In this document: in pieces, positions 4,497-51,357 of the stretch
Layout of the letters: each line of letters begins with the position of its first letter
Position numbering within the stretch: position 1 is the stretch's first letter
Sequence record: ON470595
Source of the DNA: Escherichia phage vB_EcoS-683R6
Strand: one strand, 5' to 3'
DNA length: 55,739 nucleotides
The notes under the pieces: generated by a model
Told to the model about the DNA's origin: nothing
The model's database searches: none
The model's input: only the letters and a program-made list of their open reading frames with translations
Program-made: the position numbers and the translations under genes

Positions 4497-4593
4497 ATAA
4501 AAAAATAGAGTCTGTCGACATCCGCCAGACTCTACAGTACACACAGCAGTGCATCCTCGTCTTAAATCCGGCCTGGGGTCCTGGTGACCGGTG
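4497..4593 (-). ncRNA. mcaS: small RNA McaS (IsrA)
   Basis: Reverse strand matches remembered McaS 3' half (..GCACUGCUGUGUGUACUGUAGAGUCUGGCGGAUGUCGACAGACUCUAUUUUUUUAUG) with intrinsic terminator hairpin plus U-run; lies between abgR and smrA as in K-12. Ends approximate. Confidence 0.55.
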
Positions 4594-11458: not shown

Positions 11459-11580
11459 GCAGGTGAATGCAACGTCAAGCGATGGGCGTTGCGCTCCATA
11501 TTGTCTTACTTCCTTTTTTGAATTACTGCATAGCACAATTGATTCGTACGACGCCGACTTTGATGAGTCGGCTTTTTTTT
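11459..11580 (+). ncRNA. fnrS: FNR-regulated small RNA FnrS
   Basis: Sequence GCAGGTGAATGCAACGTCAAGCGATGGGCGTTGCGCTCCATATTGTC...GCCGACTTTGATGAGTCGGCTTTTTTTT matches remembered FnrS; ends in hairpin plus T8; between zntB and dbpA. Confidence 0.8.
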
Positions 11581-15881: not shown

Positions 15882-16142
15882 TCACGAGGACTGAAGTCTC
15901 TCGCAATTAAAATTTATCAGTTTTACTTTCTGCTCTCTGGAAACGGCTGCTTCTTTTTTACCTGAGAGCATTTTTTCGCATTCTGATTTCGTTAGTTTAG
16001 ATTTTGAATATCTTGTCCAGTTAGTAGGAGTGCCACCTTCCTTTTCAATAGTGGCGGTAATTTTATACATGAACACCTCCATTATTATTTCCAGTGGTTC
16101 GTTTATTCCATCTTTCGAGTGCTTCTTTTTCACTTCCACCAT
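15882..16142 (-). CDS. ydaC: Rac prophage protein YdaC-like (DUF1187)
   Basis: 86-aa ORF containing ..MYKITATIEKEGGTPTNWTRYSKSKLTKSECEKMLSGKKEAAVSREQKVKLINF; true start probably internal. Confidence 0.55.
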   Translation of the reverse strand: MVEVKKKHSKDGINEPLEIIMEVFMYKITATIEKEGGTPTNWTRYSKSKLTKSECEKMLSGKKEAAVSREQKVKLINFNCERLQSS

Positions 16143-31652: not shown

Positions 31653-31728
<76 letters not shown>

Positions 31729-31731
31729 TAT

Positions 31732-31806
<75 letters not shown>

Positions 31807-37393: not shown

Positions 37394-38488
37394 ATGAGCA
37401 GACCGGACTGGGGGGCGTTGCAGCAGGAGTATATTGCTGAATACACCCGCTCCGGTATATCTCCGGTGGCATGGTGTGAAGCAAGGGGACTGAATTACGC
37501 AACAGCCCGTCGTTACATCAAAAAAACTCCGAAAAATGCGCAGACAGAAATGTGCAAAACTGCGCAAAAAAGTGCGCAGAAAAAATCTGCGCAGACTGCA
37601 CAAAAGCGGAACGAAAAATCTCAGGAAAAAAAGCCAGTATTCGATGCGGGCCTGAATGAGGGCGACGCGGAGGAATTTTCGTTCTGTCCCGATGAATTCG
37701 GCATTTCTGACCAGCAGGCTAAGTTTGCGATGCTTGTTGCTCAGGGTAAAAAGCCGACAGAGGCGTACCGACTAGCCGGTTATGAGGGGCAAGGTGCGAC
37801 AGCTAACAGCAACGCCAGTCGTATGCTTAGAAATGCCAGGGTTTTTCGCGCTATCAGCTACTTCCGCAATCAGTACCAGAAACGCTATACCGCAGACCTG
37901 GATTTACTAGTGAGTCAGTTGATGGCTATTGTCCTGGCCGACCCCAATCAGCTTGCACAATTTCGCCGTGTTAACTGCCGTTATTGCTGGGGCGAGAATC
38001 ATCTCTACCAGTGGCGCGATATAGCAGAATTCGACAAGGCAGCGGCGCAGGCTTCCAGAGATGGCAAACCCGAACCGGAATATGGAGGCCTCGGCTTTGT
38101 TGATAACGCCATACCCAATCCGGACTGCCCGAAGTGCTGCGGTGAGGGAACGGGACAGCTTTATATGGCTGATACCACTCTGCTTGATGGGGATGCGCGG
38201 CAATTATATGCAGGGGCAAAATTCGGAAAATTCGGCGTTGAGATCCTGCTGGAGGATAAGGCTGCCGCCCGGCGTGAATTGTTGCGTTTGCTTTCTGCTG
38301 GCGGGGATTTATGTGCAGATAAGCGGCTACAGGAACTGGAAATTGAACGGCGCAGAATGGAAAACCAGAAGCTGCGCAAAGAGATCGAAACGGTGGAAGA
38401 TAATGAACATCCCCAGCCTGTGGCGATCAATATTAATGTGGTTGATGCCAGAGTAAGGAGTGATGAAGATGATCTCTCCGACGCTTAA
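37394..38488 (+). CDS. putative terminase small subunit (DNA-recognition component)
   Basis: 364 aa; N-terminal HTH-like region; precedes and overlaps the large terminase gene. Confidence 0.55.
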   Translation: MSRPDWGALQQEYIAEYTRSGISPVAWCEARGLNYATARRYIKKTPKNAQTEMCKTAQKSAQKKSAQTAQKRNEKSQEKKPVFDAGLNEGDAEEFSFCPDEFGISDQQAKFAMLVAQGKKPTEAYRLAGYEGQGATANSNASRMLRNARVFRAISYFRNQYQKRYTADLDLLVSQLMAIVLADPNQLAQFRRVNCRYCWGENHLYQWRDIAEFDKAAAQASRDGKPEPEYGGLGFVDNAIPNPDCPKCCGEGTGQLYMADTTLLDGDARQLYAGAKFGKFGVEILLEDKAAARRELLRLLSAGGDLCADKRLQELEIERRRMENQKLRKEIETVEDNEHPQPVAININVVDARVRSDEDDLSDA

Positions 38489-46179: not shown

Positions 46180-47142
46180 GTGAGTTCAGGTGCAAAGGTT
46201 ATCTCGGCATTTATCCGGGAGACAGTTGCAGGCACTACGCCAGCAAGTGGTGACTGGAGTTTATTAAAACGCACAAGCTGGGGAGTAAAACCCACCCAGA
46301 ATAAAGGCGAAAATAATGAGATTGGTGGCTCCCGGATGGCTCAGGGGGCGACGCCTGGCACTGTGGATGTCGGCGGTGATGTTGGTACCAAATTTCGCTG
46401 GGGTCAACATGATGATTTTCTTGCATCCTGTTTCGGCGCGGAATGGTCAGGCGATTCTCTGACAATGGGGAATGAGCGAATAACATTTTCTCTGGCGACC
46501 TATGCGTCCGATGTCGGAATTGCCTCTGTCGTCAGAGGAGCGCAGGTTGGCTCATGGAAAATGCAGATCCCTAACGACGGCGATATTACAGCGACCGTAA
46601 CCTTTGCCGGGCTGGGCTGGGAAACAAAGGCCGATGATACGAATTTTATCAAAGGCAAACCTGTGGATAGTGCAGGAAAGTTACGCTATTCGTTTAAGGA
46701 GGTTTCAGCAGTAAGCCTGAATGGTGTTGCCGGAGGTAACGGTTTTTGTATCGACAGTTTTGATATTCAGTTCGATAACAAACTCCAGACACAGCGTTGT
46801 ATCGGGACTGGCTCGCCTTATGCAGGAGCAAATATTCCGACTACTTTTACACCGTCCGGTACGGTGACGCTTTCATGGTCTAAAGCCGCGTGGGAAATCT
46901 GGAGTAAAACACTGACTGGAGAAACAGTTCCGTTCAGCTTCACGCTTTCGAATGGAGAGGGGGCATACACTTTCAGTTTCCCGAAGGTTCAGGTGTCAGG
47001 TGAATGGCCTGATGGGGGTAATACTGACATTATCCAGGTTCAATTGAGCATTACCGCAGCAGATGAAGCACCTACGATAACCAGAAAAAAATGCTCCCCG
47101 ACTGCCGTGATCGCAAAAGCCAGTGCTGATGCGATTAGTTGA
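46180..47142 (+). CDS. major tail tube protein
   Basis: 320-aa ORF (GTG start) preceding the G/GT chaperone pair and tape measure gene. Confidence 0.65.
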   Translation: MSSGAKVISAFIRETVAGTTPASGDWSLLKRTSWGVKPTQNKGENNEIGGSRMAQGATPGTVDVGGDVGTKFRWGQHDDFLASCFGAEWSGDSLTMGNERITFSLATYASDVGIASVVRGAQVGSWKMQIPNDGDITATVTFAGLGWETKADDTNFIKGKPVDSAGKLRYSFKEVSAVSLNGVAGGNGFCIDSFDIQFDNKLQTQRCIGTGSPYAGANIPTTFTPSGTVTLSWSKAAWEIWSKTLTGETVPFSFTLSNGEGAYTFSFPKVQVSGEWPDGGNTDIIQVQLSITAADEAPTITRKKCSPTAVIAKASADAIS

Positions 47143-47190: not shown

Positions 47191-47652
47191 ATGAGGTTAT
47201 GGATGTTTATTCTTAATCAGAAAATTATCATCGGTGGAGAACGCTGGTTTACGCCAATGAAGGACTTAAAACCTGTAGACGGGTTAAAACTGTTGGTGGC
47301 AAGCAGCGATAACGATCAGTATCGCTCCCGTAATGCATTAATCCGTCGTCACATTGAGAAAATGGATGCCAGTTTGCACGTCGGAACGAAGGAGTTTGAT
47401 ATTTCAAAGGTTTCCGAGGTAGATTCTGTTGATGATTTACTCATTGATAATGCTGCTCGTTATCTGCTGAAAGACTGGAAAGGGGTTGGTGAACTGGTTA
47501 ATGGTGCTGAGGTTGCACTGGAATATACGCCAGAACGAGGGATCGCGCTGCTTAAGCAGAATCCAGAGTTGTACTGGCAGATCCTTGCAGAAGCAGCCAG
47601 CATCGCCCAGGGTAAAGAGCAGCAGAAGCAGGATACGATAAAAAAGCCATAG
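47191..47652 (+). CDS. tail assembly chaperone, gpG-like
   Basis: 153-aa ORF ending just after an A_AAA_AAG slippery heptamer; position between major tail and tape measure genes. Confidence 0.7.
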   Translation: MRLWMFILNQKIIIGGERWFTPMKDLKPVDGLKLLVASSDNDQYRSRNALIRRHIEKMDASLHVGTKEFDISKVSEVDSVDDLLIDNAARYLLKDWKGVGELVNGAEVALEYTPERGIALLKQNPELYWQILAEAASIAQGKEQQKQDTIKKP

Positions 47653-47960
47653 CCGCCCAGCGGTGGTTATCGGAGTTCGGGGGAGAAAGGGGGGAAAAGG
47701 CAAGATGGAAGCGAGAAAAACTCAGGTTGCCACCGATACCGGAACCAGAAATAGACCCGGTGCTTAAGGAATTGTTGTACGCCTATTCGGTAATATCCCG
47801 TGCCCGACGTTATGCTGGAATGACCGGGGTGCCTTTGCCTTTATCTCTGACAGAGATAAATGAATATTTAGCCACTCATCCGGTATTGATTGAGCGCGAT
47901 GAGTTTGAAGCAGTGATCTTTGCACTGGATGACCAGTATTTTCAGGATCAGTGTGTGTAG
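47640..47960 (+). CDS. -1 frame extension producing a gpGT-like fusion chaperone (programmed frameshift at 47640-47646)
   Basis: The -1 frame is open from the heptamer through the 47727-47960 ORF with no stop (KKAIAAQRWLSEFGGERGEKARWKREKLRLPPIPEPE...). Confidence 0.6.
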   Translation, partial: KKAIAAQRWLSEFGGERGEKARWKREKLRLPPIPEPEIDPVLKELLYAYSVISRARRYAGMTGVPLPLSLTEINEYLATHPVLIERDEFEAVIFALDDQYFQDQCV

Positions 47961-48081: not shown

Positions 48082-48107
48082 AACCCACTTCGGTGGGCTT
48101 TTTGTTG
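48082..48107 (+). terminator. UUCG-tetraloop hairpin plus T-tract upstream of the tape measure gene
   Basis: CCCAC-TTCG-GTGGG followed by CTTTTTGTTG. Confidence 0.4.
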
Positions 48108-48123: not shown

Positions 48124-51100
48124 ATGGCAGAGCAAACCTCGCGTCTCGCAATAATTATTGATAGCACTGGAGCAAAAAATAATGCTGACAATCTGACCTC
48201 CTCATTAGTCAAAATGACGCAGGCCGGGGAAACTGCTGCAAATAGCGCAGGGAAAGTGACTAAGGCAACAGAAGATGAGAAGAACGCGCTCGCAAAATTA
48301 AAAGTAGCTATTGATCCAGTTGGTGCCGCAATTGATACTGTCGGTCGACGCTATTCTGAATTAAAGAAATTTTTCGATAAAGGGCTTATTGATAAAGAAG
48401 AATATGAATTTCTTGTCCGTAAACTTAATGAAACCACAGAGGAATTGAGCGGGGTTGCGCAAGCGCAGAGAGAAGCCGAGAAGGCCGGAAAACTTGCTGC
48501 CGCCCAGCAGGAAGCGCAGGCTCAGGCCTTTCAAAGAATGCTGGACAAGATCGACCCTCTGGCTGCGGCGCTAAGAAATCTTGAACAACAGCAGGATGAA
48601 CTTAATGCTGCGTTTGCATCCGGGAAAATAAATGGTTCTCAGTTTGAGAATTATAGCCGAAAAATACAGGAAACACGGCGAGAGCTTACCGGAGAGGCTC
48701 AGGCAGAGCGAGAAGCAGCAAAAGCGCATGATGAACAGGTTGCTGCTTTGCAACGTCTGATTGCTCAACTTGACCCTGTCGGAACTGCTTTTAATCGTCT
48801 GGTAGAACAACAGAAACAGCTCAATGAAGCAAAAGCTAAGGGGATGCTCTCTCCTGAAATGTATGAGGAACTTTCTGGAAAACTTCGTGCTATGCGGAGT
48901 GAGCTTGAGGTTACTCAATCTCAATTAAGCAAAACCGGAATGTCGGCAAAACAAACGGCTTTTGCTATGCGCATGTTGCCTGCACAAATGACGGATATTG
49001 TTGTTGGGTTGTCCACTGGTCAGTCGCCTTTTATGGTGTTAATGCAGCAGGGCGGCCAGCTAAAAGATATGTTCGGTGGGATTGGCCCGGCGATCAAAGG
49101 TGTTGGTTCTTATGTGCTGGGATTAATTAATCCTTTTACCCTGGCCGCAGCAGCCGTTGGCGTCTTAGGGCTGGCTTACTATAAAGGCTCTCAGGAGCAG
49201 GACGAATTTAATAAATCTCTTATTCTTACCGGAAATCAGTTGGGGACAACCAGCGGGCAATTGGCCGATATAGCTCAACGTGCCGGGAATGCGGCTGATT
49301 CGACAACTGGCGCTGCGGCGGCAGTATTAAACCAGCTTGTGCGTTCGGGAAAGGTAGCGAGCAGTTCGCTGGAGCAAGTGACGACAGCGATAGTAAAAAC
49401 GAGCGAAGTAACAGGAATATCAACCGAACAACTGGTTAATGACTTCAATGAAATTGCAAAGGATCCTGTCAGTGCCATATCAAAACTTAATGATCAGTAC
49501 CATTTTCTGACAATTGCGACTTATAACCAGATTAAGGCGCTACAGGATGAAGGGAACCAGCAGGAGGCCGCCCGCATTGCGACAGAAGCATACTCATCCT
49601 CAATGATCCAGCGCACCAACCAGATTAAAGAAAATCTTGGTTATCTTGAGACTGCATGGAAAGCTGTCGCAGACTCCGCAAAATGGGCATGGGATTCCAT
49701 GCTGGACATTGGCCGTGAGGCCTCCCTTGATCAAAAAATCTCAGATGTTCTCCGTCAAATTGATGAAATAGAAAAAAATACCCGACCCGGAGTTTTCGGG
49801 TTAGGTGGCATTGGAGATGGCGGAGCTCAAAATAAAAGGCTGGCACGATTAAAGCAGCAATTGGGCGTACTTCAAGCAGAAAAAATTGCTCAGGACGTCC
49901 TAAATTCATCAATAAACGATTACAACAAGCGACAACAGGAAGGAATTGAACTCAGACAGAGAGCAGATGCCTTTTCAAAACAATATCAGACCCGGGAGCA
50001 GCAGAGAGCTAGTGAACTTGCAAAACTGGAAAAGCTAAAGAGTCAGTATTCAAAGGAAGAATATAATAATTTTATCGCTCAAATAAATGAGCGTTATAAA
50101 GATCCAAAGCAACCAAAGGCGAAAGGTTATTCGGATGATGCTGCCCAACGAATGATTGATCATCTGAATCAACAGAATGCGTTACTAAGTTCACAAACTG
50201 AATTAACCGTTAAATTAAGTTCCTCTGAACAGGAACTGGTTAAGTGGCGTCAGCAGATTGCCGACCTGGAGTCACGACCGTCATCGAAATTAACCCAGGA
50301 TCAGAAATCGCTTCTCTTACACCGGGAAGAAATAACCGCGTTGATGGAGAAAAATGTTGCGATTGAAAAAAATAACAGGCTAATCAAGGAATCCGCCGAA
50401 ATAGCTGCATGGCGTGATTTATTGCAGGCTTCGATTGATAATCGTCAACAGGGGTATGATATTCAGATTGCTGGTTATGGGGTTGGCGATAAAAATCAGC
50501 AACGCCAGCAGGAATTACTGCGGATTGAACGTGAATATAACAATCAGCGTCTGCAACTTGAACGTGACTATGCAGATAAATCCCGTGGGATGTCAAATCA
50601 TGTTTTTCAGGAGAAAATGTAGGCTCTGAATGATGCTCTGGAACGAGAAAAAGAAATTGTCAGACAGAAAAACGAGCAGCTCGATATTCAGGCAGGAGAC
50701 TGGGTTAGTGGTGCCTCCCAGGGATTCAATAACTGGCTGGATGACACTAAGGATATCAGTGAGCAGATAAAATCAACCACGACTCAGATGTTTGATGGAA
50801 TGACCGATGCGCTGGGTGATTTTGTCACGACAGGCAAGGCAAATTTTCGTTCTTTCGCTACTTCCGTGATTTCGGATCTTAGTCGAATAGCATTAAAGGC
50901 TTCAATTACTGGGATTTTCGACAGCATTAGTAACAGTTCTTCGGGGGGGATTTTAGGAACTATCGGGAGTGCTATTAGTAAATTTATTCCGAATGCAAAG
51001 GGCGGTGTTTATGAGTCTCCGTCATTGAACACGTATTCGAACGGTATTTATGATTCCCCGCAATTTTTTGCTTTTGCAAAAGGGGCTGGTGTTTTTGGTG

Positions 51101-51357
51101 AGGCTGGTCCGGAAGCCATTATGCCATTAACACGAACATCCGATGGTTCTCTTGGTGTCAGAGCTATTAATAGTAAAAGTGGTAATGGAGGCGGAGATAT
51201 TACCTATGCCCCTGTATACCAAATCACTATTCAAAATGACGGCCAGAATGGAGAGATTGGCCCTCAGGCAATAAAAGCACTTATGGGGATGGTTGATCAG
51301 CGGGTGCAGGGCAATCTGTTAAATATGCGACGTGATGGGGGAATGTTAAGTGGCTAA
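48124..51357 (+). CDS. H: tail tape measure protein (lambda gpH-like) interrupted by a single in-frame TAG at 50620-50622
   Basis: 832-aa ORF and downstream 189-aa ORF are in the same frame with no other stop; coiled-coil-rich N-terminus; C-terminal region ..[27 protein letters not shown].. Confidence 0.8.

Follow-up and report, generated by a model that had tools for sequence, protein, structure and literature searches.

The overlap between a YdaY-like gene and the open frame that follows it in a Rac-like prophage of Escherichia coli very probably carries, to judge from its sequence and those of its relatives, a genuine programmed -1 ribosomal frameshift site of the G/GT type, as in the tail assembly chaperones of long-tailed phages. 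All the features by which a G/GT pair can be recognized from sequence are present: the gene pair has the right position, the second frame overlaps the first in the -1 phase with neither a start codon nor a ribosome-binding site of its own, a slippery heptamer stands in phase within the overlap, and the arrangement is conserved.

Genomic context and anatomy of the G-T overlap

The window, i.e., the whole stretch of 55,739 nucleotides that was analyzed (record ON470595, Escherichia phage vB_EcoS-683R6), is E. coli chromosome together with a Rac-like prophage. Rfam recovers the chromosomal sRNAs FnrS (11459-11576) and McaS (4497-4592, minus strand) as well as the antitoxin RNA RalA (15886-16064), a marker of Rac; with ARAGORN, two adjacent prophage tRNAs are found at 31653-31806. 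The late genes run in the order P22-type capsid, head-tail genes, tail terminator, tube, G, T, tape measure, gpM-like and gpL-like, and the last of these is followed by a C40 peptidase, a tail assembly protein and J. The tube gene (Table 1) is likewise called "phage tail tube protein" by PGAP in a 100%-identical record. The G/T pair, standing between the tube and tape measure genes, thus occupies the slot of the G/GT pair in lambda-like tails (PMC5009743). A gap of 163 nt separates the T stop from the start of the tape measure gene; in it, and hence inside the late tail operon, there is a terminator-like hairpin at 48084-48107 (CCCACTTCGGTGGG, a UUCG loop, then CTTTTTGTTG); the Klebsiella and Pseudomonas relatives have extra small genes at the position of this hairpin.

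Table 1. Coordinates of the tail genes and of the elements of the predicted frameshift site in the window
Feature	Position	Strand	Remarks
Tail tube (major tail) protein gene, immediately upstream of G	46180..47142	+	Pfam Phage_tube_2, E 1.4e-31
G-type tail assembly chaperone ORF, YdaY family	47203..47652	+	PHROG 313; 149 aa, 16.9 kDa
Slippery heptamer A_AAA_AAG, predicted -1 shift site	47640..47646	+	In phase; conserved
T segment, -1-frame extension, 104 codons + stop, predicted to be read only after the shift	47646..47960	+	Open -1 frame
Predicted GT fusion	join(47203..47646,47646..47960)	+	252 aa, 28.8 kDa
Hairpin directly 3' of the heptamer, 11 bp, one bulge, CAGC loop	47647..47673	+	dG -14.2 kcal/mol
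Tape measure protein gene	48124..51357	+	Pfam TMP_2, TMP_4, Tape_meas_lam_C

On direct reading, the 0 frame at the 3' end of G is ...CAG GAT ACG ATA AAA AAG CCA TAG, and the first-pass annotation was right in ending the G-like ORF at 47652, the stop being TAG 47650-47652. AAA 47641-47643 and AAG 47644-47646 are both codons of this frame, which puts the heptamer in X_XXY_YYZ phase, as tandem -1 slippage requires; codon reading thus upholds the earlier claim that A AAA AAG at 47640-47646 is correctly phased. The -1 frame has a stop at 47613-47615 and is then open from 47616 to TAG 47958-47960, so that, as had been proposed, the heptamer and the ORF listed at 47727-47960 belong to one uninterrupted frame; re-examination for a -1-frame stop between 47646 and 47727, which the first-pass annotation had named as counter-evidence, found none. 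G and T overlap by 37 nt, and A_AAA_AAG is the sole canonical slippery motif inside the overlap. No ATG, GTG or TTG occurs in the -1 frame between 47616 and 47727, the TTG at 47727 being its first start-like codon, hence the entry at 47727-47960 in the ORF list. That TTG is merely the first start-like codon rather than a real start.

The heptamer alone is not rare, with 28 copies of AAAAAAG on both strands of the window versus 17.9 expected. Each copy was checked for its phase and for how far the 0 frame before it and the -1 frame after it stay open. Only the copy at 47640 closes a long ORF in the correct phase, with 150 open codons before it and the stop 3 codons on, and leads into a 106-codon -1 extension. 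The only other in-phase A_AAA_AAG within a long ORF is at 37627-37633, in a terminase small subunit-like gene (37394-38488), where a -1 shift would hit a stop after 10 codons; this copy is probably incidental.

G and the predicted GT fusion as tail assembly chaperones

The conserved start of G is likely ATG 47203 rather than the upstream alternative ATG 47191, as it is preceded by GAGG 6 nt upstream and its M1 is invariant across 34 homologues. The protein matches PHROG 313, "tail assembly chaperone", with an E-value of 1e-46 over profile positions 15-149 of 258; Pfam and NCBIfam do not recognize it. AlphaFold modeled G with low confidence only (pLDDT 61); the best matches of this model in BFVD are tail-assembly or tape-measure chaperones from many siphophages (E from 1.8e-4, TM 0.4-0.5), several of them 230-270 aa long, i.e., the length of a fusion product. 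A PDB fold search with the same low-confidence model singled out no chaperone, and a search of PDB sequences with the family profile gave only noise (E >= 0.18). Taking homology or fold as the measure, the upstream protein is a tail assembly chaperone. PGAP starts "ydaY" at TTG 47293 (119 aa), which matches the truncated K-12 gene; the intact prophage ydaY is thus mis-started in RefSeq records, its full-length form beginning at the conserved ATG given above and having 149 aa. Two further proteins (P0016 and P0038) have the C-terminal two thirds of YdaY joined to a terminase-small-subunit-like or ParB-like N-terminus; they seem to mark the junctions of deletions in decayed Rac-like prophages, as ynaK-ydaY does in K-12.

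In conceptual translation, the junction of the predicted fusion reads ...QDTIKK followed by AIAAQRWLSEFGG...QCV, the part after the shift beginning AIAAQRWLSEF. Its Glu-C junction peptide would be QQKQDTIKKAIAAQRWLSE, and the diagnostic tryptic peptide AIAAQR or KAIAAQR. The predicted fusion matches PHROG 313 with an E-value of 1.8e-51 over profile positions 20-245 of 258 and outscores G alone. This extension of the match from positions 15-149 to 20-245 suggests that the family profile already includes joined G-T products. T alone matches PHROG 1189 (phrog_1189) with an E-value of 5.6e-36. When G, T and the fusion were scanned against Pfam at E <= 0.01, T gave a sub-threshold match to Phage_TAC_18 (20 bits vs a cutoff of 27) that was repeated across four lineages.

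Evolutionary conservation of the -1 arrangement

The comparison covered 97 loci drawn from the window, annotated phages, genomes and IMG/VR contigs; the genome_contigs scan gave only 8 loci, and a scan of viral contigs with the Erwinia fusion yielded no relatives. T lies in the -1 frame relative to G at 95 of the 97 loci, the two exceptions being one with a 2-nt indel after the stop (L017) and one with an N in its sequence (L018). AAAAAAG is invariant in E. coli and Salmonella, in Citrobacter (~79% identity), and in Klebsiella and the bat-faeces siphovirus Flyfo (~66%), while among the enterobacterial relatives the 0-frame stop is found 10, 28, 82 or 112 nt past the heptamer start. Since the heptamer is invariant while the stop moves, it is the shift site, not the stop, that is conserved. 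Among 11 representatives, none of the three wobble positions of the heptamer codons (ATA or GTA, AAA, AAG) varies; in the preceding G codons of the same representatives 22 of 27 do. In seven IMG/VR loci (L077 and 6 similar ones), the G stop TAG has become TTG at the position homologous to 47651, lengthening G by 34 codons; they have a second change, TTA to ATA, at the hairpin partner position (homologous to 47668), and their heptamer is unaltered.

The strongest single sequence result comes from the 81 nt that lead from the heptamer to TTG 47727 (47646-47726), in which the variable sites number 9/8/23 at positions 1/2/3 of the -1-frame codons, and in which relatives below ~80% identity keep 19-22 of 27 residues in the -1 frame vs 7-10 of 26 in the other frames. 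This periodicity and the residue identity together indicate that the stretch is translated in the -1 frame. As it contains no start codon in that frame, ribosomes could enter it only out of the G frame, somewhere in the 37 nt of overlap, and the heptamer is the sole slippery motif there. An alternative is that T is an independent small gene starting at TTG 47727 or GTG 47760, with the heptamer being incidental. PGAP does place a 66-aa hypothetical protein at 47760-47960, similar small ORFs are present in phage records, and the Pseudomonas relatives have an ATG at the position aligned with 47727. Yet the 27 codons before 47727, for which the -1 frame offers no start codon from 47616 onward, are conserved as protein with -1-frame periodicity, no Shine-Dalgarno sequence was found before 47727 or 47760 in the sequence, the wobble positions of the heptamer are frozen, and the fusion lengthens the PHROG 313 match. 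We regard an independent T gene as very unlikely in the face of these observations, as against entry into T by a shift from G.

Among more distant relatives, the site reads GCA AAG TAA in Erwinia phage Gungnir39, and the Pseudomonas phiPSA1-like branch (32% identity) has CTG GAA AAG, i.e., G_GAA_AAG, in 23 of the 23 loci examined. Several Pseudomonas-branch loci have a -1-frame stop just 9-12 nt upstream of the site, so that any shift there would be confined to the site or to the positions just after it. What is invariant throughout is A_AAG, in 21 distinct sequences and the 23 Pseudomonas-branch loci, including Erwinia. Within the chaperone family, it might be that only the A-site half (A_AAG, read by tRNA-Lys) is fixed, with the P-site half and the stimulators turning over, a proposal that we advance rather tentatively. 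The same variants are pertinent to another way in which the fusion might be made, namely slippage of RNA polymerase along the run of six A's during transcription. Runs of A can cause such slippage (PMC3711429); however, the reported programmed cases involve runs of 8-9 or more A or T (PMC3711429), against 6 here, the invariant G at heptamer position 7 is left unexplained by transcriptional slippage, and the arrangement is kept by relatives with just 3-4 A's (GCAAAG, GGAAAAG), which suits slippage of tRNA-Lys rather than of polymerase. A transcriptional origin of the fusion thus seems highly improbable next to a shift on the ribosome.

When the reconstructed fusions of five lineages (67-32% identity) are aligned, the alignment is continuous through the G-T junction. 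The two-frame layout might in principle be that of a single ORF decayed by a frameshift mutation, or a chance juxtaposition, in a prophage that has at least one inactivating mutation (an amber in its tape measure gene) and in a family in which in-frame fused variants exist, i.e., P0001 and L017. These fused variants, however, are rare one-offs that stem from a 35-nt deletion and a 2-nt indel, respectively, whereas the -1 layout is the rule at 95 of 97 loci in several genera and in the 23 Pseudomonas-branch loci; moreover, both frames are under purifying selection. Decay or chance is accordingly an exceedingly remote prospect. The -1 arrangement and the predicted shift site are conserved in relatives from 99% to 32% identity. 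As for the deletion behind P0001, a 10-nt direct repeat, GCAGAAGCAG, at 47587-47596 and 47622-47631 flanks a 35-nt segment, and loss of 35 nt between the two copies explains the 240-aa in-frame G-T fusion of this one E. coli contig, which is, by its reading frame, a natural "GT-only" allele.

Downstream structure and other potential stimulators

The hairpin that begins directly after the heptamer, with a spacer of 0 nt, has a z-score of -3.7, with 0 of 200 shuffles as stable, and the portion of it beginning 3-5 nt past the heptamer still reaches -8.0 to -9.9 kcal/mol. In a 45-nt or 84-nt context it is not significant. Across 21 distinct sequences, a conserved downstream structure is essentially lacking, with 62% of cells paired and an RNAalifold energy of -2.2 kcal/mol. 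The single apparent compensatory change, that of L077, is unused in the minimum-energy fold of L077 and was set aside. The hairpin is thus a possible stimulator specific to the E. coli lineage, and is not conserved outside it.

Two other candidates were considered. AGGA at 47630-47633 is Shine-Dalgarno-like, and as an upstream element of the dnaX kind it seems too close to the heptamer, being only 6 nt upstream of it, and is absent in the Flyfo, Erwinia and Pseudomonas relatives. Phage tRNAs as modifiers of the shift were ruled out, as the two tRNAs of the window are Thr(TGT) and Gly(TCC), neither Lys nor Ile.

Parallels with known frameshifting systems

Frameshifting between G and T is widely conserved among long-tailed phages (PMC5009743), and the system in lambda has been worked out by Levin et al. 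1993 and Xu et al. 2004, 2013 and 2014 (summarised in PMC5009743). The prophage pair shares with lambda G/GT its slot, flanked by the major tail and tape measure genes, a -1 shift predicted near the end of G with an A-site AAG decoded by tRNA-Lys, and a T extension of like size that lacks a start of its own; the downstream tail genes are also M-, L-, K-, I- and J-like. It differs in its heptamer, A_AAA_AAG vs G_GGA_AAG in lambda, and in its P22-like head genes, and neither G nor T nor the fusion matches a lambda G or T family in Pfam, Phage_TAC_18 being the only, sub-threshold, hit. The proposal in the first-pass annotation of the G/GT fusion chaperone of lambda-like tails therefore stands with respect to gene order and mechanism, but not with respect to the lambda G and T protein families.

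A closer parallel for the heptamer is seen in the ECs1801-type (HK97-like) chaperones of E. coli prophages, a true A_AAA_AAG case (cluster A_AAA_AAG_25; Sharma et al. 2014, PMC4066793) for which 6-7% frameshifting was measured as GeneTack cluster 10 (PMC4066793, PMC3711429). In both systems, which are both of E. coli prophages, the identical heptamer comes right before the stop, with AGA_AAA_AAG_TAG in Sakai Sp9 and ATA_AAA_AAG_CCA_TAG here, and a -1 extension of about 100 residues follows. The chaperones themselves are unrelated in sequence, BLASTP giving no alignment at E <= 100, and the family profile did not find the HK97 chaperone 2OB9 among PDB sequences. The YdaY-type family is absent from the clusters in the supplementary tables of PMC4066793, in which "ydaY" occurs 0 times.

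The same heptamer is used by the gamma/tau shift of E. coli dnaX, with which tRNA-Lys slippage is presumably shared; tandem -1 slippage of tRNA-Lys on A_AAA_AAG takes place in dnaX and many IS elements (PMC5009743, PMC3711429). However, dnaX shifts at ~50% with two strong stimulators, an upstream Shine-Dalgarno sequence and a downstream stem-loop, and yields a shorter product, whereas the product would be longer here. The dnaX signal has its Shine-Dalgarno sequence ~10 nt upstream and a conserved stem-loop 5-8 nt downstream, in contrast to the AGGA at 6 nt and the unconserved hairpin at a 0-nt spacer of the prophage.

Proposed mechanism and efficiency

What we infer of the slip itself, of how often it occurs and of the parts played by G and GT can be pictured as follows. 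Most ribosomes starting at ATG 47203 would read through ATA AAA AAG CCA to the TAG at 47650 and release the 149-aa G. In a small fraction, with AAA in the P site and AAG in the A site, both tRNA-Lys would slip back by one base and re-pair on AAA AAA, after which reading would resume at GCC (47646-47648) in the -1 frame and go on through 47960. The resulting GT of 252 aa would have all of G but its last residue, followed by a T domain of 104 residues. If the proteins act as in lambda, the tape measure protein would be coated by G and by the G portion of GT, and the T domain would recruit the tube protein.

In E. coli reporters, A_AAA_AAG and G_GGA_AAG give 0.29% vs 0.28% shifting with no stimulator, 4.3% vs 3.8% with the IS911 stimulator and 39% vs 43% with the IS3 pseudoknot (PMC4066793). 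A_AAA_AAG is strongly avoided in the shift phase in E. coli genes (z -10.1; PMC4066793), and among tetramers A_AAG shifts most readily, reaching 5.6% with a pseudoknot (PMC4066793 tables S2 and S3). With reporter values so near those of G_GGA_AAG, with the avoidance of the heptamer and with the best tetramer within it, low-level shifting of the kind that the lambda model calls for, with a G:GT ratio of ~30:1 (PMC5009743), is plausible. The efficiency is probably between a fraction of a percent and a few percent.

Implications for annotation and for the chaperone family

The tail region is 100% identical to prophages of many E. coli genomes, with a match in 1075 of 5426 complete E. coli genomes. 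In public records the region is annotated as "protein YdaY" with a hypothetical ORF or a gap, and in phage records as two hypothetical proteins; none of the database records examined carries a slippage annotation for the YdaY-type family, and literature searches on ydaY with frameshifting and on the Rac prophage with tail assembly chaperones found nothing relevant. In K-12 MG1655 (NC_000913.3), the truncated ydaY retains the heptamer at 1425968-1425974, and an intact 104-codon T frame (1425968-1426285 region), which bears no annotation, lies between ydaY and ynaA, a remnant of the tape measure gene.

In the window, the tape measure gene has a single in-frame amber at 50620-50622, codon 833 of 1078, by a CAG to TAG change relative to Salmonella phage SPF_0923, whose gene is intact and 98% identical; in the identical copy from E. 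coli, PGAP flags a pseudogene ("internal stop"). The tail module of this prophage is therefore probably defective, making no tails without a suppressor, and because of the amber the intact frameshift signal may be idle here.

The site is an ordinary, previously unannotated case of the well-known G/GT slip in long-tailed phages. The main value of recognizing it is in annotation, where it allows the right join() feature to be entered for intact members of the group, prophages and phages alike; the understanding of frameshifting or of tail assembly is unchanged. If all the variants among the relatives do shift, i.e., A_AAA_AAG, GCA_AAG by a stop and the non-canonical G_GAA_AAG, they would make up a natural series on what heptamer and context are needed for low-level G/GT frameshifting. 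Finally, recognition of the site gives ydaY, a gene of "unknown function", a role as the remnant of a tail assembly chaperone.
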